64,000 bases of DNA from a virus. Lineage: Duplodnaviria; Caudoviricetes. Below the pieces are notes generated by a model, which searched no databases, had not been told where the DNA came from, and was given only the letters and a program-made list of their open reading frames with translations. The DNA lies in IMG/VR virus record IMGVR_UViG_3300020576_002947, positions 160,001 to 224,000 of that record, one strand, 5' to 3'. Of the stretch, positions 13,004 through 49,330 are shown piece after piece. How positions within the stretch are numbered: the first letter of the stretch is position 1; each line of letters begins with the position of its first letter. The translations under genes and the position numbers were made by a program.

Positions 13004-16000
13004 ATGTTTCCAAAACGGTCTAATGATACAGATGATTATAAGGGTCTAAGTAAGAAACAAGGCTCAATTAAAGGATTGGAGTCTATTAGATTAGATTTCA
13101 AACTAAAAGAGTTTTGGGTAACACAGAAGACTAAGGATGCTATGGCTAAAGACGTAGCTAACTCCTTAAACACCTTAAGTGGGTCAACAATTCACTATAA
13201 AACTCTTCCTGATAACTCTCGTCCTCAATGGGTTGATACCCTTAGCAATTTAAGTGATAGTCTTAATGGATTAGCTAGATTTAGTACCTCCCAAATTATG
13301 GGTGCTTTAGATAATTCAATTAATGCAACTAAAGATATGATATTAGAGGCTTCAAAAGTTTATCTAATGTTTAATCCTCAAATGCACAAACGAAACGGAG
13401 AACTAACTTTTACAGGGCAGGTAATGGGTAGGATTTATGATGTACACAAAGCATCATTCCAAACGGAAGCTACTAAAAATGCTCTTGAAGCAGCTTGGAA
13501 TTTAATGAATCCTAAGAGTGGTAAGTACGAGATGGTTAGTTTCCAAGCTAAAGTTCTTACTGTAGAAAACCCAGCACTTATAAGTGAAATGTTGTATGGT
13601 ACGAAAGGTGGTCTGAAGGATATGCCAGACTTTTCTGACTTACTAGGTACTATCGTTAAGGGAAGAGACGGTCAGCTTCTTTTTGTCACTGACGCTAGAG
13701 TATTTGCTCAGCTAGCTATTGATAATGATGGAGACGTAATTCAATTATCAGTACTAAAGAAGGTAGGGGAGTCTATCACAACATCAGCAGAGTTTGCATT
13801 CTACCAAAAATCCCCTGGTTTAAGAACAAATGGAGGCGTTAGACTATTAAACGGTCTTCTATCCCAACAATTGAGTGGTGCAGCAATAGATGCAGCAGTT
13901 ACTGACCCAGTTACAAAAAGACAACTAGAACTAAAGAGGCTTAAAGCAACAACCGACTTAACCCTTTATGCCCGCCAGAGATTCTTTGGTGCCCAATTAG
14001 ATGCTTTTGGATTAAATACTACAAATACCCCTGAAAGTCCTTATAAGGGGACAATGGATTATCGTTACAGCAAAAGTGATCTACTAAAAACTGGTGCTGG
14101 TTTAATTACTACTGGGGCCAACGGTAGATCACAATTTCCTGATATAAAAGAGATATTTGCTTTTGAGGAAGGTGGTGTAAAATTTATTGGAGATGACGCC
14201 TTATCCCCTCAAGCACTACCTTCAGGGGTAAGATCTATTTTAAGAGGAGCCTCCAGAGGAAAAGAAGTTGCCTTTTGGGAAGGTTACCGAGGAAAAGACC
14301 TATCAAACAAAATGTATGCTCAAGAGTATGCTTTTGGTGGTTATGCTAAAAAGCAGGCCATGAAAGAACTAATTCCACAAGTGCGTAGCAACAAACAGGT
14401 GGGTCTTTTAACTAATATGGTTTGGGTTAAGGAAGTCTCTGAAATCATGCAAAGCATGACAGATAAAGGGGATTTAAATAACATGATTGATCAACTGGAT
14501 ACTGCGTTTCTAAAGGCGGTAAGTGATCATGTTAGTTCAGGAGACATAGATCCTAAAGCATTAGCAAAGATTAGAGAATCTGCAGGAATGCTTGCTACGA
14601 TTACCTCAAAGTTAGGCTTAGGAGACAGACGCTTTAAAGTACTAGAGCTACAAGCACTAAAAGCAGGTATTGGAGGAAAGGCACAGACAATCGGAGCGGA
14701 CGCAAGTCTTGTTTGGGGAGAAGAGGCACAAAGAGTTTTTACTGAATCAGCCAGTTTGTACCTAACTAAATCTAAATATTTTTCTGGTATGAGCGTAACC
14801 CAGTTATCAGAAGTACTAGAAGATATGATGACGGGTAACTCTCGATACTTAAAGTCAGTAGGACCTGATTTCATTACTCAAATGACTAACCCATTTGGTA
14901 GCGTTCTATCTAGCTTTGAATCTGGCGGTGACGGAGCTGTAACTAGAGAAGTAAAACCAAGAGAATCTAAAATTAGGACCGATTATTCTAAAGCAGCTCT
15001 TGAGAAGAGAGCCCAAAGTAGACCTCTTGCTCATGTACTAGATCGTAATGGAGCAAAGAAAACCAAAGGAGCTTTAGATTATTTAATTGAAGCGGGTATA
15101 CTAGAAGTACATAGATTTGATATGAGCGCAGAGACTATAGGTGCTGAAAATTTAGGCCAACTACAGAGAATGGCTGGGCAGAATCCTGTTTCTTCAGTTA
15201 CAATTGTACAAAGGGACGCTGCGGGTGGTTATAGAAGCTGGGGAAGTAATCCTGGAATTCAAGCTACAGATACAGCAGCAAGACAAGCACAATTACTAGA
15301 AAACTCAGTATGGAGACCTACAGTAATGCTAGCGAATGCAAATGGTCTCGCTTTTGATAATACTACCCCACCTGAAGATATAATACCACTATTTCTTGAC
15401 CCCTTAGAAGCAGTAAGAAAAGCAACAGAGAATGTTTCAGGTATAATTGGTCTCGAAACTCAACAAAAAGGTGGTAAAGGAGTAAAAACACACTATAGAT
15501 TTAATATAGGTGATTTTAGTGGTGCAGCTATTAATAACGATGGTATGCCGGAAGCTAGTGGTATTACTCTTAAATCATTCAAAGACGATGAAAAGCTTCT
15601 TGAGAACGCCTTAAGAGGGTACTCCTCAAAGAAAGATTTCGATAATGGTGATATAAAGAAGATTCTTAATCTTGATGTTGAAAGCGAGATTAATAGAAAG
15701 GGTTTAATGGACTACGCAAAGAATCTATTAAACAGGGCCTTAAATGAGAACGACAAAGAAGCAGAGATTAAATTTAAAAGACTAGTCACTGGTGGGTTTA
15801 TGAGGTCTTATGCAGGACAAAGTTTTGAAAGAAAATTCAATGCAGCTGTTGCATCAGTAGCAGGAGAACTAGCACACCAAACGACACTAACTGTTCAACC
15901 AGGTGGAGGAGTAGGTTTAGGTATAAATCAAAATTCTGATGTATGGAGCAGAGGTTCTATTACTATAACAAACGAGTATGGTGATATTGTTGATGAACGA

Positions 16001-17662
16001 GACTTAGCTGATGGTATTATTATAGCACAGAAGTGGTTAAACTTAAGAATAGGTAGTAAAAAATCAGGACCACTAAATGCTGCGGCAAGAGCATTCCTCT
16101 ACGATCCGACCAAACCATCGTCTGTTGCAGATAAAAGAGGTAGTAAAATATCTAGCCAGGCTATTGCTGGCGTAGAAATAAAAGCTACGGTAGCTTACTT
16201 TATGCCAGATACTTTTCTTCAAGAACAGGGTGATGATCTTACTAAAAAGATTTTCAAAGGTAACGCAGATGAGTGGTTTGAGCACTTTTATTTAACACTG
16301 GCTGAAGACAAATCAGGTACTTACGAAGATCTATCCAATAAACAGAAGTTTCAGGGACAGGGCGAGCTTTTTCTTACCCCTGCAGGTGCAGCTAAAGTTA
16401 AAGCTCAACAAAAACTTAAAGCTGGAAAACTGATTGAGTACGAAGGAATACCACCTATGAAAGATCAGTTAAGTAGAAAAGCCCAAATGTTTTACGGCAA
16501 ATGGTATTATGTTCTTAGCGAAGAAGAGTTAGTTTCTGACGCTAAACTTGTAAATACTGCTGGCTGGTTAAAAGCTATGCCAATAGGAATTACAACTCAG
16601 TATACCATGAATCCTACTGGTGGCGGTGCAAAGCAAAACATTGATATGATGATAAGTCTTGGTGAGGTTTTTGCTAAATCCACAGGAATTAATCAACTAC
16701 TTATCCACCATGCCAATGAGCTAGGATTAACGTCAGAAGAAGTTAAAACCAAAATGGAAAAACATAGGGCTAACTTCCAAAAAGCTGTTAGCACTGGTGA
16801 TGATAAAGCCTTAAAAGGTCATATTACTGCAATGCTTGAGGACTTTGGATTAATGAAAGAAGAGGTAGAAGAAATAGATGAACAAGGGGTAGTAAGAAAA
16901 GCATCAGCTTGGGTTTTTGGCAAGCGTGATGAACGGGGTAATGCTGCGTTAGCGGATACCACAGTAATCTCACTTACAAATGTTGCAGAACACCTAGTAG
17001 CAAGAGAAACTTGGGATGAGAACTTGCAACGCTTAGTTATAAAAGGTGCTGAGTCAACCCAAGTTATGAAAGGAGGTTTAATGAGCCAGGATGTAATCAA
17101 TAAAATCTTTGGTGATGGTGCTGTTAAAGCATTTGACCTTTTCTCAGTACTTGGACGTGATGGTGAGGAAGGTTTAATAAAGAGCTTCGCAAGAGAGCTT
17201 AATCCTGGTGTGGTAACACTTACTGATAATATGATTGCACAGGCACGGCAAACACTGCAGGTTGGGTTTGTTGCAGTTGCTCAGCAGGAGTACACGGGAG
17301 CTGCGGAAAAGGCTACTGAGCACCTAAGATCGCAGCTAGGCCTATTAATGGATGCTAGACTTGAAATTCTTGATGCTATTAGTGGGGGTCAGATTATACA
17401 GGGCTTAGGTAGTATCAAAAAAGAAACTCACCAGCTACAAGCAATAGCCCATAGCATAGGCCTAGCAAGTCAAGCACAAAAACTTGGTACTATAGGTAAA
17501 GAATTAGAGGGCAAATCTGAAAACATGCTCCACTATCTAATGAAGAGTACTCCTGCTAATGGTAAGCTAGCAATAGCTATGGCCGCCACAGCAGCAACTG
17601 CTACAGCCTTTGCGATGAGAGGAAGAGTACAGGCTAAAAGAGAAGAAGCTCGTACCAGGTAG
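13004..17662 (+). CDS. Putative virion-packaged single-subunit two-barrel RNA polymerase (permuted domain order)
   Basis: DNDGD (aa 240-244), KSP (269), VGLLTN (466), ELQALKAG (548), GQGELFLT (1118), K1181-LVNTAGWL-K1190 and D1214-MMISLGEVFA-K1225, matching beta' and beta catalytic-barrel motifs; collinear with the 800-aa protein. Confidence 0.75.
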   Translation: MFPKRSNDTDDYKGLSKKQGSIKGLESIRLDFKLKEFWVTQKTKDAMAKDVANSLNTLSGSTIHYKTLPDNSRPQWVDTLSNLSDSLNGLARFSTSQIMGALDNSINATKDMILEASKVYLMFNPQMHKRNGELTFTGQVMGRIYDVHKASFQTEATKNALEAAWNLMNPKSGKYEMVSFQAKVLTVENPALISEMLYGTKGGLKDMPDFSDLLGTIVKGRDGQLLFVTDARVFAQLAIDNDGDVIQLSVLKKVGESITTSAEFAFYQKSPGLRTNGGVRLLNGLLSQQLSGAAIDAAVTDPVTKRQLELKRLKATTDLTLYARQRFFGAQLDAFGLNTTNTPESPYKGTMDYRYSKSDLLKTGAGLITTGANGRSQFPDIKEIFAFEEGGVKFIGDDALSPQALPSGVRSILRGASRGKEVAFWEGYRGKDLSNKMYAQEYAFGGYAKKQAMKELIPQVRSNKQVGLLTNMVWVKEVSEIMQSMTDKGDLNNMIDQLDTAFLKAVSDHVSSGDIDPKALAKIRESAGMLATITSKLGLGDRRFKVLELQALKAGIGGKAQTIGADASLVWGEEAQRVFTESASLYLTKSKYFSGMSVTQLSEVLEDMMTGNSRYLKSVGPDFITQMTNPFGSVLSSFESGGDGAVTREVKPRESKIRTDYSKAALEKRAQSRPLAHVLDRNGAKKTKGALDYLIEAGILEVHRFDMSAETIGAENLGQLQRMAGQNPVSSVTIVQRDAAGGYRSWGSNPGIQATDTAARQAQLLENSVWRPTVMLANANGLAFDNTTPPEDIIPLFLDPLEAVRKATENVSGIIGLETQQKGGKGVKTHYRFNIGDFSGAAINNDGMPEASGITLKSFKDDEKLLENALRGYSSKKDFDNGDIKKILNLDVESEINRKGLMDYAKNLLNRALNENDKEAEIKFKRLVTGGFMRSYAGQSFERKFNAAVASVAGELAHQTTLTVQPGGGVGLGINQNSDVWSRGSITITNEYGDIVDERDLADGIIIAQKWLNLRIGSKKSGPLNAAARAFLYDPTKPSSVADKRGSKISSQAIAGVEIKATVAYFMPDTFLQEQGDDLTKKIFKGNADEWFEHFYLTLAEDKSGTYEDLSNKQKFQGQGELFLTPAGAAKVKAQQKLKAGKLIEYEGIPPMKDQLSRKAQMFYGKWYYVLSEEELVSDAKLVNTAGWLKAMPIGITTQYTMNPTGGGAKQNIDMMISLGEVFAKSTGINQLLIHHANELGLTSEEVKTKMEKHRANFQKAVSTGDDKALKGHITAMLEDFGLMKEEVEEIDEQGVVRKASAWVFGKRDERGNAALADTTVISLTNVAEHLVARETWDENLQRLVIKGAESTQVMKGGLMSQDVINKIFGDGAVKAFDLFSVLGRDGEEGLIKSFARELNPGVVTLTDNMIAQARQTLQVGFVAVAQQEYTGAAEKATEHLRSQLGLLMDARLEILDAISGGQIIQGLGSIKKETHQLQAIAHSIGLASQAQKLGTIGKELEGKSENMLHYLMKSTPANGKLAIAMAATAATATAFAMRGRVQAKREEARTR

Positions 17663-34927: not shown

Positions 34928-35225
34928 AGCTACAGTTATCTTCTATCATACCCTTAAACTGATCCTGATACTCCTCCCAATCCATCAACTTAAACTCCTC
35001 AATAATATCATTGTCATTAGCATAGGCAACTAGTACTTGTCCCTGTGTAATAAGATAGCCATTAATAAAACCTAGAACAGATGCCCACCCATGAGGATCA
35101 GCTTGAACAGTAGGATGATCTTGCATACCATCACCTAAATAAACTTTCCCAAACAAGAAGTTACTAAAGGCCATAGGATTAATAGCGTTGACACTTTCCA
35201 AATACTTCAAAAAATCAGCATTCAT
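34890..35225 (-). CDS. Hypothetical protein with Cys-rich acidic tail
   Basis: ATG at 35225 overlaps the upstream stop (ATGA); ends CSCDSCECNC. Confidence 0.55.
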   Translation of the reverse strand: MNADFLKYLESVNAINPMAFSNFLFGKVYLGDGMQDHPTVQADPHGWASVLGFINGYLITQGQVLVAYANDNDIIEEFKLMDWEEYQDQFKGMIEDNCSCDSCECNCGDDE

Positions 35226-36265
35226 ATAGAGTAATGTAGCTCCCAATCCTTATGTGATTTTCTGTACCCATGAACGACCTTAGTAATAGCAGAAGGCTTA
35301 ACACCTGCCAACCTACAGAAATCAGCAATCTTAAAACAACTAACGATCTCACCGGTAACAGTATTCTTAAAAGAAATCTTAGACTGATTATCTAATGAAT
35401 ATCCTTTGTACGATTTAATCTGACCGTTAATTAAAAGACTTAACCTCTTACTAGGAATACTATACTTTTTTGAAAACTCTGAAACTGAATTAGCTTCATA
35501 CACAATACCATCAGCATCAACTAATCGAACAACTTTAGAATATTTCTTTGGTTTATTTGGTGACAAAGTGTAGCCCTTATATGAAACTTCTCTTCTAGTA
35601 ACCATAGAATAAAAAGAAGAGTGGTTTAGATTATTATCTCTGCAAAACTGAGCTATATTTGTAAGAATGATTTCATTGCCCTCAGGATCATATACAGTAA
35701 CAGTTCTACCTATAGGTGTCTTAGGCTTTATCTCTTTAGGTATCGTATTAGGAACCTCACCTAACCTATACCAACCTTTATAAAACTTCTTATTACCCCC
35801 TAGAACTTTTTGAACATCTTTATAGCCAGGAAGACTATACTCTTTACAAAATTTAGCTATATTAGAAAATTCTACAATAGTACCATCAATATGCTGAAGA
35901 GTTTTAATTTTTAGAGGAATTGAAATTTTTTCCTGTCTTTTTACTCTTTGTTTCCTTAGTAGTAAAGGACTCTCATAAAAAGTTTGATAATAGTTCTCAA
36001 GATTAGTAAGATCTTCTACAGGACATGAGGCTAGTAATTCGAAAGAAAAATCTTCCCTTCCAAAAAGACTATGAGACTTATTTAGTTCTACTATAGTGTG
36101 TCTGTTATAGTGAGCATAGACCATGTGCTGCGATATACGCTGTCTTACATCTTTAGAAGATCCTACATAGTATTGTCCTGTAGAAATAATATTAATCTTA
36201 TAAACACCAGAGCCTTTATTATTATCTCGAAACTCATTGTATGTTAGAGATTTATTGTAAACCAT
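35222..36265 (-). CDS. Free-standing GIY-YIG homing endonuclease with four tandem DNA-binding repeats
   Basis: GVY...YVGSS...R...H...E catalytic domain; four ~45-aa repeats of type G....N/S..FC/S...L....YKG(W/Y). Confidence 0.9.
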   Translation of the reverse strand: MVYNKSLTYNEFRDNNKGSGVYKINIISTGQYYVGSSKDVRQRISQHMVYAHYNRHTIVELNKSHSLFGREDFSFELLASCPVEDLTNLENYYQTFYESPLLLRKQRVKRQEKISIPLKIKTLQHIDGTIVEFSNIAKFCKEYSLPGYKDVQKVLGGNKKFYKGWYRLGEVPNTIPKEIKPKTPIGRTVTVYDPEGNEIILTNIAQFCRDNNLNHSSFYSMVTRREVSYKGYTLSPNKPKKYSKVVRLVDADGIVYEANSVSEFSKKYSIPSKRLSLLINGQIKSYKGYSLDNQSKISFKNTVTGEIVSCFKIADFCRLAGVKPSAITKVVHGYRKSHKDWELHYSI

Positions 36266-36415
36266 ATTAATAATGTAAGTCGCATTTTAGCTTTTTATGA
36301 CCTTAGACTTTTTATTTATTAACTGTAAGTATGAAAATGGGGGTATTAACTATATATATAAGGGGGTATATCTCATTTTATACCCCGGGGTCAAAAAGGC
36401 CCACTTGGAGAAAAC

Positions 36416-36664
36416 ATGAAAAACATTCTGATCGTCGTTTCATTCATCATCGTCTCAGTCATCATCATGACTGGACTCTTCTCATTCTTCAGCGGCGTTG
36501 CTCAGAAATCAGCAGCGTCGAAGCAGCTTATCCTTTGTCAGGATAAGTTGAATCATGGCGGAGTGCGATACATGGACGAGAAGCCCTCATGTGGCAATCT
36601 CGTTATTGTTGTGCGTGAGAATGACCATGTGGGTATGCCCATGTGGGCTGCTCACATGAAGTAG
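36416..36664 (+). CDS. Early membrane-anchored protein
   Basis: TGGAG ribosome-binding site; N-terminal TM helix; first gene of the plus arm. Confidence 0.6.
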   Translation: MKNILIVVSFIIVSVIIMTGLFSFFSGVAQKSAASKQLILCQDKLNHGGVRYMDEKPSCGNLVIVVRENDHVGMPMWAAHMK

Positions 36665-36670
36665 TTCAAT

Positions 36671-36748
36671 AAGGGTAGTACTGTAATAGTATTACCCTTT
36701 AATTTTACTGTAGACTACTAGGGCCAAACAAGGCCTACTGTTATAAGG
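36671..36748 (+). promoter_or_regulatory. Terminator hairpin plus repeated hairpin element, copy 1
   Basis: AAGGGTAGTACT/AGTATTACCCTT stem, then TAGACTActaGGGCC-aaacaa-GGCCTA. Confidence 0.6.
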
Positions 36749-36776
36749 TACAGTATAACTATCTTAAGAGTACACT

Positions 36777-37199
36777 ATGCAACTCACTCTCAACAGCAGC
36801 ATCACTACTCTCCTCGGAGAGGTCTCTTTCGTCAACGCTGATTACTGTGTCAAGTCCTTTGATGACATGACCAATGTGATCCGAATGTGTGTGTGGCTTG
36901 GTGAATCCAGGCTTGACAAGAACTATGTCAGCAGAAGGACCATGACCCTGTCCCAGGCCTCTGATTGGGACACTCTTAGTGCAGCATGGTCAATCCTTGA
37001 AGCTGCAAAGAAGCAGTACATGGCAGAGCTTCCTGTGTGGAGCACTGCTGCAATGGTTTCTGCTACGGTAGAGAACATTGAGGAGATCGTTGTTCTCCAG
37101 TGGCAGATCCGCTGCTGGATGGACAAGGTGTGGGAAGCAGAAAGTAATCTGAGGGCTTCGGCCTTGAATAAGCTTCTCAGTATGGAGGCTTGGATCTGA
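36777..37199 (+). CDS. Early hypothetical protein
   Basis: 140-aa ORF between repeated elements. Confidence 0.65.
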   Translation: MQLTLNSSITTLLGEVSFVNADYCVKSFDDMTNVIRMCVWLGESRLDKNYVSRRTMTLSQASDWDTLSAAWSILEAAKKQYMAELPVWSTAAMVSATVENIEEIVVLQWQIRCWMDKVWEAESNLRASALNKLLSMEAWI

Positions 37200-37200
37200 G

Positions 37201-37285
37201 TAATAAGGGTAGTATCAGTAATGGTACTACCCTTATTATTTATTATAGTCTATATGGGCTAAATAAAGCCTATAGTTTGATAAGG
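37201..37285 (+). promoter_or_regulatory. Terminator hairpin plus repeated hairpin element, copy 2
   Basis: 17-bp stem TAATAAGGGTAGTATCA/TGGTACTACCCTTATTA, then TAGTCTAtatGGGCT-aaataa-AGCCTA. Confidence 0.6.
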
Positions 37286-37316
37286 TTCTAGTGAAAAACC
37301 TTTGTCAATGGAGAAC

Positions 37317-37559
37317 ATGATGAAAATCAAGCTCAAAAGCATCAACGCAGAAATGACCCTCACTGAGGGTCCTCAACTGAGGATCTTGGCAGGTGGGACG
37401 ACGAAGAGTGAGGGTCTTCCCGCTCTTCTTGAACTCAAGAGGTGGTCAGAATACCTCGTCTCAACTCTGGGGGAAGAGCCCTTGGACTTGATCAAGGAAG
37501 ATTTGAACAGTGTTAATTCGTTGCTTCATGCAGCGATTAACATGTTGATGGCCCCTTAA
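37317..37559 (+). CDS. Early hypothetical protein (paralog of the next gene)
   Basis: TGGAG RBS; IKL.S.N..MTLT...W..YLV...K.DL..V.SL shared with 37620-37850. Confidence 0.65.
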   Translation: MMKIKLKSINAEMTLTEGPQLRILAGGTTKSEGLPALLELKRWSEYLVSTLGEEPLDLIKEDLNSVNSLLHAAINMLMAP

Positions 37560-37619
37560 AACAACCAAGTTGTCTTTGATCCTTTCCAATTAAAAGAAAG
37601 GTGTCCACTGGAGAAGAGG

Positions 37620-37850
37620 ATGAAACAGATCAAACTTGAATCAAACAACGTCACCATGACTCTCACTGCTGAGAACCTCGTCGTTCTCAACAACGGCGGA
37701 AGCTCCCGATACCTTCGAAGTGAGGACGCTCTTGGCGTTCTCATCGACTGGGTTGATTACCTTGTCGAACTGATCCCCGCCGATCCTATTGTGGTGAAGG
37801 CAGATCTGAGAAGAGTTCTTTCCCTCGTGAAAGAGTTCACTCACGTCTGA
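37620..37850 (+). CDS. Early hypothetical protein (paralog of the previous gene)
   Basis: TGGAG RBS; same motif pattern. Confidence 0.65.
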   Translation: MKQIKLESNNVTMTLTAENLVVLNNGGSSRYLRSEDALGVLIDWVDYLVELIPADPIVVKADLRRVLSLVKEFTHV

Positions 37851-37917
37851 GTAATAATTAGTGTACAGTGTCTATAACTGGGTAGCGTGTAACTCGCTTA
37901 ATCTTCTGGAGAAAGAA

Positions 37918-38127
37918 ATGAAAAAGAACAAGTTCTTTTCCGAGGCTTTGGCCTCTCTCGTCGTCGCAGTCTTGGTTGGCACGGGCTGCTTCTTCCTCAC
38001 GTTGTGGGGACTTGACCTCTTCTGGAATGGGGCTTGGGATATGGATGTCCTGAACGCCATTGCTCTCTTCAGTGCGGTGTCGTTCGGAGTTATCTCCGGT
38101 ATGCTGCGCTGGAATGTGAAGAGGTAA
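37918..38127 (+). CDS. Early two-TM membrane protein
   Basis: TGGAG RBS before ATG 37918; two hydrophobic helices. Confidence 0.6.
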   Translation: MKKNKFFSEALASLVVAVLVGTGCFFLTLWGLDLFWNGAWDMDVLNAIALFSAVSFGVISGMLRWNVKR

Positions 38128-38134
38128 TCAAATT

Positions 38135-38200
38135 GGGGCTGAGAGAAATCTTGGCCCCTTTTAATTTATAATAGTCTATAGGGGCTATTAAGCCTACTAG
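38135..38200 (+). promoter_or_regulatory. Terminator plus repeated hairpin element, copy 3
   Basis: GGGGCTGAGA/TCTTGGCCCC stem with TTTT, then TAGTCTAtagGGGCT-atta-AGCCTA. Confidence 0.6.
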
Positions 38201-38316
38201 TCGAGCCAGTTAACGACTTAAGAATAATATACTGGTTTCTGTACTTTCCTAGCTTCTTGAAGCTTCTACTAGGAACAGAATAAAACGTCGTACAAGAACT
38301 GTCCCCATGGAGTAAC

Positions 38317-38895
38317 ATGAAACTGTTCATGAACCCGATCTGGGCTTATCTGGCCCATTCCACTCTCCAGCATCTGGGCTGGAACAATCAGACCGCTTCG
38401 GTGGTCAGCGTCCCTTCGACCGTCAAGGTCACTGACAGGAAGCAGATGGAGGCTGCATCCTCTCGTCTGCACCAGAACCATAGTCTGATGCAGAAATCAG
38501 CAGCTCTTGAGGCCAAGCACGGCTTCAGGGCTGCTTGTGCAGCGTCCAGGATCGAGATTTCGGGTCTCGATGCCAATGCTGAGCGCAAGGAGTTCGTCCT
38601 TGTTCTCGGCAAGGCTCTGGGTAGCTTCTTTGCTGCTCCTACTCTCACTGCTGGTCAGATGATTCTGGCTGCAGTGGCCGGACTTGTGTGGCTTCCTCGA
38701 TTCGTTCGGGAAGTCCTCGCCAAGGTTCGCCTCTTGGTTGGCAAGATGATTCTTGCTGCCAAGAAGGCAGAAGCCATCGCCCAGGCTACCTACGTGGCCG
38801 AAGTCAAGGCAGCTAGGGTGGCTGCAGCAGAGATGGTTACAGAAGCCATCAGGAGGTGGGCCACTCCGGCTAAGAAGGTTAAGCAGGCCAAGTAA
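38317..38895 (+). CDS. Early Ala/Lys-rich protein
   Basis: 192 aa, TGGAG RBS. Confidence 0.65.
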   Translation: MKLFMNPIWAYLAHSTLQHLGWNNQTASVVSVPSTVKVTDRKQMEAASSRLHQNHSLMQKSAALEAKHGFRAACAASRIEISGLDANAERKEFVLVLGKALGSFFAAPTLTAGQMILAAVAGLVWLPRFVREVLAKVRLLVGKMILAAKKAEAIAQATYVAEVKAARVAAAEMVTEAIRRWATPAKKVKQAK

Positions 38896-38933
38896 GGGAT
38901 TTAATTCCCACGACTGCGGATAGGATAATTAAA

Positions 38934-39389
38934 ATGTCCGATCCTAAGTTGGTTGAGCTTCAGGCAGTTACTAAGGCTGCTTGGGAAGCTTATAAGGCTG
39001 CATTGTCGGCTGAGAAGACTTACCGCAAGGAAGTTGGACAGGCTGCTGCTGTGGCATGGAAGGCTGAGAGAGCCCAGCTCAATGAGACCGAGAAGGCTCT
39101 TATTGATGAGCTCACTACTGTGCTGGAGAATTCCTTCGCCCAGTGGAGAATGGCTAAGAAGACTGAGTTTGCACAGTGGAAGGCAGACTTGGCTTTGTCT
39201 GATGCCATGAAGACAGCAATTCCACCCAAACCTAAGATGGTGTGGGAAGTAGAGACTGTCGAAGGTGTTAAGCCCTCGACACTCTTGGCGGCTGCAGGCC
39301 AGGTGATTGCTAAGCACAATGAGGCTAAGATCACCAAAGGTCTTGAGCCACTGAAGGTTTCTGCTAGGATCAAGAAGGAGGCTAACTAA
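38934..39389 (+). CDS. Early helical Ala/Lys-rich protein
   Basis: 151-aa ORF. Confidence 0.65.
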   Translation: MSDPKLVELQAVTKAAWEAYKAALSAEKTYRKEVGQAAAVAWKAERAQLNETEKALIDELTTVLENSFAQWRMAKKTEFAQWKADLALSDAMKTAIPPKPKMVWEVETVEGVKPSTLLAAAGQVIAKHNEAKITKGLEPLKVSARIKKEAN

Positions 39390-39535
39390 TGTTGGCCGTG
39401 TTCCTGCTGCTGGTAGGGTTCGGAATGATTGGTTATGGAGCATTCCTCCAGACCATCAATGAGATCAAGAATTCCTGAGATTGTTGCGGCTATTTGCGTA
39501 GTCGTAGTTCTCTTGGGAGTGTTGTGGAGATAACC

Positions 39536-40789
39536 ATGAATCAATTCGAGATTCAAGCACAGAAGATCGTCAACAAGGTCTTCCCTAAGGTCATTTGTGG
39601 TGAGAAGGCCTCTGATCATCTGAGACAGATCATCGAGACCAAGCTGGCTAATGGGAGGCAAGTTACTCTGAGCATCAAACACTCAGATCATCAGAAGGCT
39701 CTCAGTAGCATTACTGGAGTTCCCTGTGTTGAGGGCTTCAGAATCAAGGACCGCCAGGTTTGGGTCGGCTATGAAGTTAAGCAAAGGCCTTTTACAGATG
39801 CAGATTGTTCTGCACCAAGACTTCGCGTGCATTCTGATGAAGATGGGTATCCTTACGTCTATCGTCTGGAGTGGGTAACTGTGAATCAGAAGCTTCTTCC
39901 TGAGATGCTGGAGGTGGTAACTGATTCAGCTTCTAAAGGACAGAAGACAAGGTTTGGTGTTGTCCAGTCAGGGATGAAGGCTAAGTCGGCTAACATGGTC
40001 GAGTATCATGTTGATACCAAGCACATGGAACGCCTGGGTATTGATATCTTCAGGGATCTGATGACAGGTCCTGGTGGGATGTATTTGGTCTACAAATGGT
40101 CTCTGGTTAACCAAATGCTTCAAAAGTTTGAGGCTCATTTGGCAATCCATGAGGATCATGAGGCTATCATGAACCACCCAGAACTGCCTGACTTTCGAAG
40201 AAAGATTAGGGCAATGCTTGGAAAGATGGGCAAGCCTGCGTTTATTTATCACAGGATGTCAATTGGATCGGCTAGTCATAGAGGTATTGACCATGCCGAC
40301 TCACTTGACTACCTGACACTCAATCAAGTGAAGACTATTCCAACGTTTGAGAGAATGTTGGAGATTGGTGCTCAGATCGAAGCTGATGAAAAGGCTAGGA
40401 GAGAGGCATTGAGATACAAGGCTCCTGCATCACCACCTAAAATGTGGGAAGACGATAGCCTGAAGGTGAAACTTCTTCGCCCAGGAATTGAGTTCATTGT
40501 CGAAGGAAGGGAAATGCACCACTGTGTTGGCGGATACAGTGGATTTAACTCCATCATTCTCGGCGTTGAGATTTATGGTGTTCGTGCCACAGTTGAGCTG
40601 AATCGTACAGGAGACATTCGCCAACTAAGAGGCGTCTGCAACGAAGGCCTTCCAATGGAAAGCCAATTCCTTTTCCGAGACTGGCTTAAGAACAATCTCA
40701 AAGAAGTTCTTGAAACAGTGGAGAATGAGGACTACTACAGTAGTGATCACACTGCTATCGTTGTAGACAACGACCCATTCGCCTGGTAA
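39536..40789 (+). CDS. PcfJ-like domain protein
   Basis: EGREMHHCVGGY...ATVEL...QLRG..N C-terminal signature; TGGAG RBS before ATG 39536. Confidence 0.8.
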   Translation: MNQFEIQAQKIVNKVFPKVICGEKASDHLRQIIETKLANGRQVTLSIKHSDHQKALSSITGVPCVEGFRIKDRQVWVGYEVKQRPFTDADCSAPRLRVHSDEDGYPYVYRLEWVTVNQKLLPEMLEVVTDSASKGQKTRFGVVQSGMKAKSANMVEYHVDTKHMERLGIDIFRDLMTGPGGMYLVYKWSLVNQMLQKFEAHLAIHEDHEAIMNHPELPDFRRKIRAMLGKMGKPAFIYHRMSIGSASHRGIDHADSLDYLTLNQVKTIPTFERMLEIGAQIEADEKARREALRYKAPASPPKMWEDDSLKVKLLRPGIEFIVEGREMHHCVGGYSGFNSIILGVEIYGVRATVELNRTGDIRQLRGVCNEGLPMESQFLFRDWLKNNLKEVLETVENEDYYSSDHTAIVVDNDPFAW

Positions 40790-40818
40790 GGCTATACGAC
40801 TAAGAACTGGAGTAAAAA

Positions 40819-41076
40819 ATGAACTATCACATGTTCAATGAGCCATCTCTTAAGGAGATGAACAGCTTCCGCCATATGGTGGATGAGGATGCAATGCTGG
40901 CTGAGCACGCAGCCTATGACTCTCACGATGGTGTGACTTTCGGATGCAATGCTGATCCGCAAGAGCCTACCACAGACGAGTGGAATGATGTCCACACACA
41001 GAGAGTTGTTGCAAGAGCACTCGCTGCTCAAAGACATCCTTACATGGCCTACCTCAGAGCCACAGGGCCAGCGTAA
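40819..41076 (+). CDS. Early hypothetical protein
   Basis: TGGAG RBS, 85 aa. Confidence 0.6.
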   Translation: MNYHMFNEPSLKEMNSFRHMVDEDAMLAEHAAYDSHDGVTFGCNADPQEPTTDEWNDVHTQRVVARALAAQRHPYMAYLRATGPA

Positions 41077-41372
41077 TGAGAGACTTGTTCTTTGACTCAG
41101 TCCTGGCTGAAAGAAGGGCTACTAAAAGCCTTCTTACGTCAGAAGAACTAGAAGACATTAAGCTACAGAAGGAGGCTGTGGCTGCTCTCAGAGCAAGAAG
41201 AAGACTTCTTCGACAGAGAGAAAAGGAGACTAAAGCGTTGGAAGATGCTTTGGAACTCCTTGATGCTAAGGATGCAATGATTGCGTCTATGGGCATTCAC
41301 GGATGGAGGTTTAGACATCTTGGATATGAGGTTGAGGTGTCTGAGAAAGGGTATAGCTTGAAATGGAATTAA
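41076..41372 (+). CDS. Early coiled-coil protein
   Basis: TAATG coupling, 98 aa. Confidence 0.6.
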   Translation: MRDLFFDSVLAERRATKSLLTSEELEDIKLQKEAVAALRARRRLLRQREKETKALEDALELLDAKDAMIASMGIHGWRFRHLGYEVEVSEKGYSLKWN

Positions 41373-41536
41373 AACTGCAAGCTGATCGGAAGCTCTTGGT
41401 CACCAAGCTTAAGACTCTTCAGTCGAAAGGCAAGTGGAAAGACTGGGATGCTATCAACAGGACGACCCAGAAGATCAATGAGATCGACTGGGAACTCCAG
41501 CGACTAAGTAAGAAGGGGGAAGATAATGAAAGTTAA
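41363..41536 (+). CDS. 57-aa hypothetical protein
   Basis: Not in the ORF track; MELKLQADRKLLV...KKGEDNES fills the gap. Confidence 0.5.
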   Translation: MELKLQADRKLLVTKLKTLQSKGKWKDWDAINRTTQKINEIDWELQRLSKKGEDNES

Positions 41537-42524
41537 GACTCCGTGTGGTCGAGAGGTCACTATCGTCAACATCAAGGACACTCCAAACTGGAAGGAGTTG
41601 TATCCTAATGGTGTGTACTGTGGCAGACCTCCTAAGAGTCAGCCTGGTATGCACCTTGGGAACTTGTTTACCCATTTGCAGCTGGATGATCCGTCAAGGA
41701 CTATCTGGGTGCCAACCAGGGAAGTTGCTGTCCAAGCCTTTGAGAGATGGCTCAAGGGTGACTACGATCCTATGTGGCCGCTTGCTAAGTTGGCTGCTGA
41801 GGAACAACGCCGTCTATGGATTCTGAAGGTGATCCCTAAGATCCAGGAGAAGGCTGAGGCATTGGCATGTTGGTGTGATCCACTAATGTGCCACACTGAG
41901 GTACTTGCTACCTTTGTGCCCACGACAGCCCCTACGACTACCACACAGGTGTTCTACACTGGTGTTGGTACCAGAGGCAGGCAAGGCTTCGATGGTGTAA
42001 GAAGACTTCCTCAACATATGACAAACCTTATTCGTAGGGTGTCAAGATGGAAGAGGGATAAAGGAGAGATCCTCAGATCAGGTCATGCTGTTGGATCTGA
42101 TCTAGCATTTGAGATGGACACTCCTGTTTGGCAGAAGGAGATCTATTTGCCAACAGAGGTATTCAACAAGGCCAGTGCATCTACCCCAGGATGTATTGTG
42201 CCTGATGAAGAACAGTTGGAAGAAGCCTTTGACTTCCTTCAGAGGATCGGTGTGCTTGAACCAAGACATGCTGCTAAACTAAAGTCAGGAACAGGCTTTG
42301 GTTGGAGAGCCCATGCTAGGAACCTATTCCAGGTTATTGGTGTGGACATCGAGAATCCACGTCCATCCAAATCTCTGTACTGCTACACAGAGGATGGAGA
42401 AGAAGTGGGTGGAACTCGTACGGCTATATTGGTCGCACGACACTTTGATGTCAAGGTGATTAACCTAGGTAATAAGGATGTTGCTGCCAAATGTGGTCAT
42501 TGGCTGGAGAAGAATGGATACTAA
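41526..42524 (+). CDS. DUF4326-like plus SLOG (DprA/YpsA-like) fusion
   Basis: N-terminal VYCGRP...GNLF...LACWCDP..CH.EVL; C-terminal YTGVGTR, RSGHAVGSD.AFE, ARN..Q..G, GGT..AI..A....V.VINLG. Confidence 0.75.
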   Translation: MKVKTPCGREVTIVNIKDTPNWKELYPNGVYCGRPPKSQPGMHLGNLFTHLQLDDPSRTIWVPTREVAVQAFERWLKGDYDPMWPLAKLAAEEQRRLWILKVIPKIQEKAEALACWCDPLMCHTEVLATFVPTTAPTTTTQVFYTGVGTRGRQGFDGVRRLPQHMTNLIRRVSRWKRDKGEILRSGHAVGSDLAFEMDTPVWQKEIYLPTEVFNKASASTPGCIVPDEEQLEEAFDFLQRIGVLEPRHAAKLKSGTGFGWRAHARNLFQVIGVDIENPRPSKSLYCYTEDGEEVGGTRTAILVARHFDVKVINLGNKDVAAKCGHWLEKNGY

Positions 42525-42948
42525 TTTCATGGTCTTGTTTGAAGAGGCGTTTCTAATCTTCAAAGAGTTTGACAAAAGTGGTGACTATGAGGCTGAGATG
42601 TATGTGACCTGTGAAGATACATCTCACTTCAATGTATCTTTTGACAGTTTGACAAACAAAGTAGTCAGTGTTTCGATTGCTTTAAACCCAATCCAAATTC
42701 AATCTGATTCAGACAACTATTTAATTCCCAGAGATGAGATTTTCTGGTGTACCTTCTATCATGAGATGGGTCACTACCATCAAGTGATGAATGGCACATA
42801 CTTTTCAAAGATCAGGGAAGTTGAAGATGACCCTAAAGTATTACTTTGGCTTGAAGAGGACGCGTGGACTTTTTACCCTAAAGCTAACAAAAGGTTTGTA
42901 GCTTATGCCTTAAGAGGCTACCGTCAATTAGCAGGCTACTATATTTGA
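42514..42948 (+). CDS. HExxH zinc-metallopeptidase-like protein
   Basis: FYHEMGH...E.DAW. Confidence 0.6.
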   Translation: MDTNFMVLFEEAFLIFKEFDKSGDYEAEMYVTCEDTSHFNVSFDSLTNKVVSVSIALNPIQIQSDSDNYLIPRDEIFWCTFYHEMGHYHQVMNGTYFSKIREVEDDPKVLLWLEEDAWTFYPKANKRFVAYALRGYRQLAGYYI

Positions 42949-43032
42949 GGACTACTGTGACTACAGAACAAATCCTTCGGTAGGGGGAACATTCGGAGTC
43001 AGGAGCCCACAGGAGTCCTGCAAAGAGTTACC

Positions 43033-43485
43033 ATGGAAATCAGCACAGTTTCACAGAACATCATCGACGGCCTCAAGGCCATCAACGTCACCCTGTCAGA
43101 GGTCAGGATTGAATTGCATCCTAACGATGCATTTGACAGCGCAGGAAAGCCCCAGCCGCATCTTCAGAGCCTCATCCTGGCAGGGTTCAGGAAGTTCGAC
43201 ATCTGCGAGTTTGAAGCAGATCAGAACAGAGCAAGCGGTGTCGGTCGCATCAACGACGGCATCAGAAAGTCCTGCATGGCTCACGCTCTCGCGTGGGGTA
43301 GCAATGCCCGAGAAGCAAAGGGACTTCTCACTTCGTTCGGACCTGACTTTTTGAGAACTGAGGTTCAGCGCTTGGTCAGGAACGGCATGACCCCCGCCAT
43401 GTTGCTTGCGGCAAGCCAGCCCAAGAAGGTGGCTTCTGCTTCAGCAGAGGTCGCTCTGGCCGATCTCGAATCCCTCTTCGAGTAG
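43033..43485 (+). CDS. Hypothetical protein
   Basis: 150 aa, C-ending codon bias, followed by a hairpin at 43498-43526. Confidence 0.65.
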   Translation: MEISTVSQNIIDGLKAINVTLSEVRIELHPNDAFDSAGKPQPHLQSLILAGFRKFDICEFEADQNRASGVGRINDGIRKSCMAHALAWGSNAREAKGLLTSFGPDFLRTEVQRLVRNGMTPAMLLAASQPKKVASASAEVALADLESLFE

Positions 43486-43643
43486 AGCGCTATAGTTTGG
43501 GAAGGGCCCCCTCAAGGCCTTTCCCTTACTTCAGGACCTTCGCCTAAAGTTTAACCACCTGTCTCTCGTAAGCTTTGTTTTAAAAGCTGAACAACTATCT
43601 GGGATTTATCCCCATGTCCGTCCGTTAAGAACAAAAGGCTATT

Positions 43644-44189
43644 ATGGCTACTAAGAACGCAAACAACCCCACGTCAACCGCCGCTCCCATCAACACCGAA
43701 AAGGTCGGCCAGCCCGCCCAGGTCAACACTCCCAGCATTGAGGACCTCCAGGCCCTCGCTGGCGTGATGAAGAGCAACACCATCTCTTCAGAGAAGCCCA
43801 GGGTGGACTTCAAGCAATTGGGAGGCGATTTCGAAAGGAATCGAACTCCACTCTCTGAGCGCTTGGAACAGCTACCATTCCTGATCAGTGCTGGAATGGT
43901 CGTGGATGGCACCAGCACCGTATGGGGCAACTGGCATCTCCAGGCCCCCAGGCAGGAAGGCAGGACTCCGGTCCTCAGCTTCCACGTTCCAAGTGAGCGT
44001 GAAGTGACTTCCACTGTCAGGGGCAAGAAGCAGACCGTTCTCGAGACGGGCTATGACAGAGTCAAGGTCAGGATCACCGAAGAGGGCATCCTCGACAACT
44101 TGCTGGATCTGGATAGGTTGCCACACTTTGGCACCCTCGCCAGTGTGCTCTGTGACAGAGGGTCCATTGTGATCCTTTGGGAAGAGTAA
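43644..44189 (+). CDS. Hypothetical protein
   Basis: 181 aa, followed by hairpin GGGAGGTCTT/AGGGGCCTCCC at 44211-44233. Confidence 0.65.
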   Translation: MATKNANNPTSTAAPINTEKVGQPAQVNTPSIEDLQALAGVMKSNTISSEKPRVDFKQLGGDFERNRTPLSERLEQLPFLISAGMVVDGTSTVWGNWHLQAPRQEGRTPVLSFHVPSEREVTSTVRGKKQTVLETGYDRVKVRITEEGILDNLLDLDRLPHFGTLASVLCDRGSIVILWEE

Positions 44190-44259
44190 TTATTAATTAA
44201 GTTATCACTAGGGAGGTCTTCAAGGGGCCTCCCACCAAAAGCCAATTGAGAGAACCAAT

Positions 44260-44619
44260 ATGAAGCGAAACTTTCTTGCCGCTGGCGTCGGAGCCTTGGC
44301 AGCCACTCTTGTCACTACTTCCGTCGGAGCCGTAAAGGCTTCTGGAAGAATGGCCGCTCAGATCCGGGACCAGTTCCAGGACACAACTGAAAGGGGGAGA
44401 AAGATCCAGTCCTATAAGGATTTGGACTTCCAGATCGAACAGGGAAACCTGGACCCCACCAAGCTCGAAAGAGCTAAGGACCTGCGCTCAAGGCTCGAGA
44501 TCATTCTCTGGCCCAAGGCACAAACTCAGAGGAAGGATCATAGCGATATTGATTCATTCCTCTCAGAGATTGAGAGAGAATTCGACTTGAGCACAGAACC
44601 TGCTCAGGTCACCGACTAG
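44260..44619 (+). CDS. Hypothetical protein with N-terminal hydrophobic helix
   Basis: 119 aa. Confidence 0.6.
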   Translation: MKRNFLAAGVGALAATLVTTSVGAVKASGRMAAQIRDQFQDTTERGRKIQSYKDLDFQIEQGNLDPTKLERAKDLRSRLEIILWPKAQTQRKDHSDIDSFLSEIEREFDLSTEPAQVTD

Positions 44620-44826
44620 GAGTTTCAGACTGCCCTTAACCAGGTAGCTGAGGAAGCGACCAATTAACCTTTAAGGGCATTGCCCATCTAACCAGATTTA
44701 AAACTGTGTTAGGTGTGTAGTGCCCTTTTTAAATGCTGAAGCCTTAGCTTCTTGCTAGTTATACAATGATAAGGAAACTAGTAAGAGGTTAAGGCTTTTT
44801 TCCAGAAATCGCCTATATTAGTACGG

Positions 44827-44851
44827 GGGAGGGGCCCCTTTAGGGGAGGGG
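44827..44851. repeat. 25-nt G-rich direct repeat, copy 1
   Basis: GGGAGGGGCCCCTTTAGGGGAGGGG, identical to 49306-49330; both intergenic. Confidence 0.9.
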
Positions 44852-49305: not shown

Positions 49306-49330
49306 GGGAGGGGCCCCTTTAGGGGAGGGG
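49306..49330. repeat. 25-nt G-rich direct repeat, copy 2
   Basis: Identical to 44827-44851. Confidence 0.9.

Follow-up and report, generated by a model that had tools for sequence, protein, structure and literature searches.

Analysis of a 64,000-nucleotide window of a phage genome (positions 160001-224000 of the single viral record IMGVR_UViG_3300020576_002947, which is 239,691 bp long with a GC content of 37.9%) revealed three copies of a short intergenic element, here called E1, E2 and E3, which on balance are probably phage-specific promoter modules. We infer that the polymerase reading them is encoded by the phage and is not the host sigma70 holoenzyme; it may be delivered with the virion, if the compositional island described below is the first DNA to be expressed. 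Coordinates are those of the window unless given as genome positions. A crude gene map divides the genome into two arms that diverge at 36266-36415: the minus-strand arm of about 104 kb comprises the structural genes (portal, terminase, capsid and several giant proteins), and the plus-strand arm of about 135 kb begins at 36.4 kb and continues across the contig ends. The record is classed in IMG/VR as linear and 94% complete; long poly-C tracts terminate both of its ends (genome 1-40 and 239620-239691, outside the window), so that it is broken at a homopolymer, an assembly artefact rather than a physical terminus. E1-E3 all lie within 1.5 kb, in the opening 2 kb of the plus arm.

The elements share the form TAGWCTA-N3-GGGCY-(A/T loop of 4-6 nucleotides, nt)-RGCCTA. 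A whole-genome motif search, which an earlier reading of the window made from its letters alone had proposed, was run with the pattern TAGWCTA-N2-4-GGGCY-N3-7-RGCCTA and returned exactly three matches in the 239,691 bp, all of them on the plus strand and intergenic. The three copies named in that sequence-only reading, with stems starting at 36721, 37256 and 38182, were thereby confirmed. Within the window the three matches stand against 0.01 expected from 100 shuffles, a figure that is partly circular, the pattern having been built from the same copies. The conserved module extends over about 45 columns, from CCCTT to GCCTA, with conservation fading on both sides, and E2 and E3 are 88% identical across a 32-nt block from CCC to GGGCTA. 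It may be parsed into an A/T-rich 13-mer that would double as the terminator T-tract, TAGWCTA, three variable bases and GGGCY-loop-RGCCTA. TAGWCTA is a perfect 7-nt palindrome, its two forms TAGACTA and TAGTCTA being mutually reverse complements. The covariation previously claimed for the stem comes down to one pair, which does change in a compensatory manner (C-G in E1, T-A in E2 and E3); the fifth pair, at the stem base, is an invariant G.T. Moreover, every copy has a G at a distance of 11.5 nt on the 3' side of the loop centre: in E1 it follows, at 36740, the TA after the inverted repeat, and in E3 a 1-base-longer spacer compensates for a 2-base-shorter loop and keeps the distance. Scans for more degenerate copies, allowing one mismatch plus any hairpin or using looser patterns, yielded a single doubtful site at 37866, which lacks an upstream terminator. 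A looser copy had also been proposed at 36388; the hairpin GGGTC-AAAAA-GGCCC is indeed present there, but it lacks both TAGWCTA and the 13-nt spacer and its folding is no better than that of shuffled sequences (z-score, z = +0.6). The shorter motif GCCTAYW was considered as a general promoter core and rejected, showing no intergenic enrichment (7/90 sites).

Each element follows shortly after a terminator-like hairpin (T1-T3), as had been noted previously, and the distance turned out to be fixed: exactly 13 A/T-rich nt separate the last C of the terminator stem from TAGWCTA in 3/3 cases. This holds despite the sequence of T3 bearing no relation to those of T1 and T2, which have TAATAAGGGTAGTA in common. 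All three hairpins have the makeup of intrinsic terminators, with a GC-rich stem followed by a T-rich tract, and they begin 1-8 nt past a stop codon; T2 folds as DNA at -21 kcal/mol (z = -7.4). Their T-tracts are interrupted by A, which makes their efficiency uncertain. Downstream, the gap to the next ATG is 40 nt for E1, 45-48 nt for E2 and 120 nt for E3. The ribosome-binding sites are of the GGAG type, and the host is therefore not one without such sites. A promoter scan of the plus strand from 36274 to 41740 found no sigma70-like -35/-10 pair, bearing out the absence reported by the sequence-only reading.

The genes behind the elements form a sharply bounded compositional island. The GC content at third codon positions (GC3) of the 16 open reading frames (ORFs) at 36416-44619 is 0.40-0.71 with a mean of 0.57, as against 0.28 +/- 0.07 in the 298 other ORFs. 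The genes right past 44.8 kb are at 0.21-0.36, and the boundary of the island is a strong terminator at 44739-44805. The island could be either a host-tuned pre-early class or a recently acquired cassette. Its products are almost all small orphan proteins, the exceptions being a PcfJ-like protein and one (41526-42524) in which a DUF4326 domain (Pfam E = 6e-12) is joined to a DprA-like domain (PHROG 768) as a fusion.

Several of these observations jointly favour promoter function: the restriction to three intergenic, gene-oriented copies where the plus arm begins, the identical distance to terminators of unrelated sequence, the lack of a sigma70-like match and the island of small orphans downstream. 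The presence of proteins of 368 and 800 amino acids (aa) with the polymerase-like DxDGD motif, besides one of 1552 aa, points the same way. By analogy, so do other phages: in polymerase-encoding jumbo phages the conserved early-operon motif proved to be an early promoter wherever tested (PMC7598289), and in phages N4 and P23-45 between a few and 14 early promoters are interleaved with terminators at the first-expressed end (PMC4496689, PMC10770324). Each module would accordingly restart transcription directly past a terminator, serving three units that follow one another at the beginning of the plus arm. Two arrangements can be envisaged. In the first, the A/T spacer and TAGWCTAYW would serve for upstream recognition, transcription would start in the GGG and the inverted repeat would become a 5'-terminal RNA stem-loop. 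In the second, with a geometry like that of N4, the hairpin would form in the DNA and transcription would begin downstream of it, close to the conserved G that stands 11.5 nt from the middle of the loop. We slightly favour the first arrangement on account of the long upstream conservation, the base pair that is an invariant G.U in RNA, with which five pairs form in the plus sense only and the RNA hairpins reach -7 to -10 kcal/mol as against a 4-bp stem in the template DNA, and the CTATAGGG of E3. The last of these we take to be identical to positions -5 to +3 of T7 promoters, as a lead and not as a test.

Table 1. Coordinates of the elements and associated features (window positions unless marked as genome).
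Feature	Position	Strand	Description
E1 core	36711-36737	+	TAGACTA CTA GGGCC AAACAA GGCCTA
E1 module	36698..36740	+	13-nt A/T spacer; TAGACTA 36711-36717; GGGCC/GGCCT inverted repeat 36721-36736; loop AAACAA
E2 core	37246-37272	+	TAGTCTA TAT GGGCT AAATAA AGCCTA
E2 module	37233..37275	+	13-nt A/T spacer; TAGTCTA 37246-37252; GGGCT/AGCCT 37256-37271; loop AAATAA; conserved G 37275
E3 core	38172-38196	+	TAGTCTA TAG GGGCT ATTA AGCCTA
E3 module	38159..38200	+	13-nt A/T spacer; TAGTCTA 38172-38178; GGGCT/AGCCT 38182-38195; loop ATTA; conserved G 38200
T1, terminator-like hairpin	36671..36699	+	6 nt past gene 1 stop; then TTTAATTTT
T2, terminator-like hairpin	37201..37238	+	17 bp, directly past gene 2 stop
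T3, terminator-like hairpin	38135..38158	+	past gene 5 stop; sequence unrelated to T1 and T2
Gene block behind elements	36416..44619	+	16 ORFs, mostly orphan
Putative transcription units	gene 1; E1 to 36777-37199; E2 to 37317-38127; E3 to 38317-44619	+	
GGGTC-AAAAA-GGCCC	36388..36402	+	15 nt before gene 1 ATG; not a family member
Possible degenerate copy	37866..37900	+	before gene 5; GTCTATAA-CT-GGG, then 4-bp AGCG/CGCT repeat; doubtful
(T/G)TACATTAT(A/T)A sites	36278, 33387, 32435	-	
(T/G)TACATTAT(A/T)A site	63218	+	
(T/G)TACATTAT(A/T)A sites	genome 117602, 74491	-	
(T/G)TACATTAT(A/T)A sites	genome 231085, 10268	+	
GGGAGGGGCCCCTTTAGGGGAGGGG	44827-44851 and 49306-49330		exact 25-nt G-rich palindrome-like repeat; only two genome copies
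1552-aa protein	13004..17662	+	conserved AIDNDGDVIQL at residue 240

Certain features of the locus weigh against promoter function. Gene 1 (36416) has no copy of the element, and at least one further promoter is thus needed. Three modules between four units fit end-of-unit signals as well as start-of-unit signals, and phages of the phiKZ type have dozens of early promoters, next to which three copies are few. The second early unit includes two adjacent small paralogues (37317-37559 and 37620-37850; 36% identity, E = 2e-8), on which basis the similarity of the elements could partly reflect recent local duplication. The evidence for a hairpin amounts to one compensatory pair among three copies, and the promoter call itself is a prediction from the DNA of one genome, not a discovery. 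As to gene 1, the divergent region at 36339-36386 contains two copies of the direct repeat GGGGGTAT, which can pair alternatively with a single ATACCCC arm; the repeat lies just upstream of the 36388 hairpin and the gene 1 ribosome-binding site, and it is possibly a switch or the 5' structure of a gene 1 promoter.

Among the competing explanations, the one that fares best, while still unlikely, is that the elements act in RNA on read-through transcripts, either as intercistronic processing or stability sites or as nut/put-like antitermination sites. In the processing variant, a cut in the A/U-rich single strand between the hairpins would give an upstream mRNA that ends in a 3' hairpin and a downstream mRNA that begins with a 5' hairpin, and the succession of hairpin, 20-nt A/U-rich linker and hairpin does resemble an RNase E-type site. 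The folding is consistent with such a role, for E1-E3 reach -7 to -10 kcal/mol as RNA, with z down to -2.9, as against -3.5 to -3.7 kcal/mol as single-stranded DNA (z = -0.3 to -1.4 relative to shuffles, not significant). The fold is stronger in RNA because the invariant pair at the stem base counts there as G.U, and this pair completes five pairs in the plus sense only. The interrupted T-tracts make read-through likely, and there is no element ahead of the first gene or past the last, as would be expected of intercistronic sites. Yet host RNases need little sequence, and about 45 nt are retained here, including a heptamer that is palindromic as DNA; moreover, the element occurs in three places only despite the many operon junctions in the genome. 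For the antitermination variant, we take TAGWCTA, the spacer, the 5-bp stem and the A-rich loop to be reminiscent of lambda boxA-boxB. Unlike in lambda nut sites, however, the loops are 4-6 nt long, start with A and lack the initial G of the GNRA-like boxB pentaloop, and the elements stand 13 nt after terminators, which nut sites precede. A search of Rfam with the elements gave no match. A third conserved hairpin, at the putative 5' end after each element, was also considered and rejected (z of +1.2 to -1.0).

A special case of promoter function, proposed by the sequence-only reading, is that of N4: an extruded DNA hairpin would be read by a virion-packaged polymerase, here the 1552-aa DxDGD protein. 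Of that proposal promoter function is retained as the most plausible role, but hairpin recognition of the N4 type now seems distinctly improbable. As at the N4 left end, three copies head an early block, each past a terminator; the stem is kept, with its one compensatory pair, as the loop varies in length; and the conserved G keeps its place. The template-strand stem has 4 bp in the E copies, the G.T turning into C.A, and it folds at -3.0 to -3.5 kcal/mol (z = -0.2 to -1.3). By the same method N4 P3 gives -3.1 and P2 -5.2, and 41-nt segments of the N4 promoter regions give about -3 to -7 kcal/mol, the P1 value including a neighbouring second hairpin. Low predicted stability alone therefore does not disqualify an N4-like mechanism. 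Against it stand the variable, A/T-rich loops of 4-6 nt, the short template stem, a conserved stretch of about 25 nt ahead of the hairpin, which N4 lacks, and the failure to find a T7/N4-like polymerase in the genome.

The candidate enzyme fares no better. The DxDGD motif places the 1552-aa protein beside the 368-aa and 800-aa proteins, but neither it nor a 3499-aa protein matches any PHROG or Pfam family, and the 1552-aa protein further has no match in the PDB, by sequence or profile, or in the ESM Atlas and in BLASTP is not significantly similar to the 800-aa polymerase candidate. An exhaustive HMMER search of 1.8 billion representatives recovered only two homologues, an orthologue of 91% identity and a homologue of 30% identity; AQxAIDxDGDxIQL is kept in both, and AIDxDGDxIQL is hence under constraint. 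The sole distant homologue, P0003 (1328 aa, on a JGI/ENA contig of 7.7 kb), retains this motif together with a hydrophobic C-terminal segment. A three-sequence profile of the family had no match in the PDB, and an AlphaFold model of residues 130-620 from a 3-row alignment was unusable, with a predicted local distance difference test score (pLDDT) of 33. The T7-like polymerase family PF00940 was absent from the genome, with control genomes likewise giving no signal. The 1552-aa protein is thus an unproven candidate polymerase, to which the sole pointer is the conserved motif, and its proposed role as the enzyme of the elements found no support: nothing in these searches assigns it to a family or links it to E1-E3. 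A related scenario, which we also regard as improbable, has a two-barrel (cell-type) virion polymerase using hairpin promoters independently of the T7-like enzyme of N4 and switching on a host-tuned pre-early island; the island would then be expressed before the phage tRNAs and polymerases take over.

Less probable still is that the elements are termination signals, that is, polymerase-specific terminator or pause motifs backing up the hairpins. This has a precedent in Thermus phage P23-45, where a 26-nt conserved motif is found at seven pre-early termination sites near the left end (PMC10770324). The fixed 13 nt from the terminator stems would suit it, as would an E2-like hairpin (GGCT-AAATTAA-AGCC) in a terminator-like site at genome 9622. 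Yet the E hairpins are not followed by a T-tract, there is no E copy at the strong terminator ending the block, and the 40-48 nt from E1 and E2 to the ATG would leave genes 2, 3 and 6 without room for a promoter that does not overlap the element. It is very improbable that the elements are sites for a dimeric DNA-binding protein, be it an operator that switches off the early units or a site for partition or replication. The palindromic heptamer and the imperfect dyad of about 35 nt formed by the whole element fit such a role, but the strict co-orientation with genes and the one-sided A/T spacer point to a signal with a direction; the neighbouring genes yielded no DNA-binding regulator, and an operator would in any case overlap the promoter. 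Finally, a functionless remnant of a duplicated intergenic cassette, for which the paralogous genes and the sequence common to T1 and T2 might speak, is scarcely tenable: the element and the 13-nt spacing persist although T3 is unrelated and so are all three flanking genes, and conservation is limited to the module.

If E1-E3 are indeed promoters, they are not the only repeated signals at operon starts, which fall into at least three classes: E (3 copies), the G-rich 25-mer GGGAGGGGCCCCTTTAGGGGAGGGG (2) and the motif TTACATTAT (about 10). The two GGGAGGGGCCCCTTTAGGGGAGGGG copies are each preceded by GCCTAYAT; the first opens an AT-rich block after the terminator that bounds the island and the second heads the operon with the 800-aa polymerase candidate. 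These sites share with E1-E3 the grammar 'CTAYAT ... GGG + GC hairpin'. The TTACATTAT copies are found in both arms, 4-8 nt before start codons, and those in the late arm come after terminators (13 nt in the clearest case), which indicates that compact terminator-then-signal junctions are a habit of this genome. In its fuller form, (T/G)TACATTAT(A/T)A, this type of motif precedes start codons without a Shine-Dalgarno sequence and is a candidate second promoter class for leaderless or near-leaderless mRNAs. At the point of divergence it also precedes the first gene of the minus strand, a GIY-YIG/NUMOD homing-endonuclease-like gene at 35222-36265. A de novo search for other promoter classes returned mainly tRNA and ribosome-site words, plus TTACATTAT. 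Outside the window, genome 9611-9650 carries an AAGGCT-AAATTAA-AGCCTT hairpin with a T-rich tail, which is near-identical to the E2 hairpin and stands in a terminator context.

The phage is an orphan, its terminase being 24% identical to the best matches, from Acinetobacter phage ME3 and Bacillus 0305phi8-36-like phages. A blastn search of 36200-40200 against a phage collection gave no match. Scans for the element pattern found seven single matches and no cluster in viral contigs, and at least 120 stretches in metagenomes; among the metagenomic matches listed, all are single except for one tandem pair, again with no cluster. By tblastn none of the loci retrieved by the metagenome scan is related to the window, and a search for related loci with the 431-aa and AAA proteins found none. 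A protein homologue search with the 431-aa protein did recover one orthologue, on a 7.2-kb Logan contig. A close relative thus clearly exists, known from proteins on Logan contigs: the orthologues of the 431-aa protein (gene at 39494-40789) and of the 1552-aa protein, of 96% and 91% identity and on contigs of 7,245 and 67,927 bp, respectively.

If they are promoters, E1-E3 mark out the transcription class that comes first in this orphan phage of 240 kb, whose several operon-start signals seem to be accompanied by two or three unusual RNA polymerases of the cell type. Pairing polymerases with signals would yield a compact sigma-free promoter-polymerase set and would also be a test of repeated evolution of hairpin promoters. 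The GC3 island, in turn, is a hint that the genes expressed earliest are suited to being translated in a cell that the phage has yet to remodel.

Comparison with known systems places the elements closest to early promoters, with points of departure in each case. A block of about 23 nt, at 2/23 positions of which E2 and E3 differ, ends in CTATA(G/T)GGG, a likeness to the T7 phi10 promoter, and the stem-loop beginning at the G run presumably resembles the phi10 leader, again as a lead and not as a test. The upstream half of the block differs from the specificity regions of the T7 group, for which no polymerase gene was found in this genome. The early promoters of N4 and LUZ7 are read by a T7-like single-subunit virion RNA polymerase. 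Their loop is a conserved triplet with a central purine on a stem of at least 4-7 bp, a GC-rich heptamer is centred on it at -11, and conservation is limited to about -17 to +1; transcription starts 11 nt from the loop centre in N4 and 13-14 nt from it in LUZ7 (PMC4496689, PMC9163698). Initiation of the N4 type also depends on supercoiling and SSB. The N4 left end likewise runs from a gene to a terminator and then, 35-40 nt further, to a promoter, and the product of N4 early gene 12 (gp12) is a DUF4326 protein like one encoded in the early block here. E1-E3 resemble N4 P1-P3 and the LUZ7 promoters in heading the early region in few copies, each past a terminator as in N4, with a short inverted repeat, no sigma70 promoter and a conserved purine about 11 nt from the loop centre. 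They differ in that the loops AAACAA, AAATAA and ATTA are not a conserved purine-centred triplet, the centre is A/T-rich and the conservation is far longer. With no 3-nt loop or GC-rich centre here and no T7-like enzyme detected, the N4 mechanism survives as an analogy only.

The remaining comparison is with phiKZ/AR9 and P23-45, where early operons are preceded by a conserved A/T-rich core of about 10 nt that can be picked out bioinformatically and, in the phiKZ/AR9 type, is centred near -10; the copies number from 14 to several dozen, and no inverted repeat is reported for them. In contrast, the 240 kb of the present phage contain three copies and a further doubtful one, and each of the three has a GC-rich inverted repeat directly downstream. 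The corresponding core here would be WTAGWCTAYW, which stands upstream of three operons. In P23-45, too, conserved promoter and terminator motifs are paired, at the genome end that is first to enter the cell (PMC10770324).

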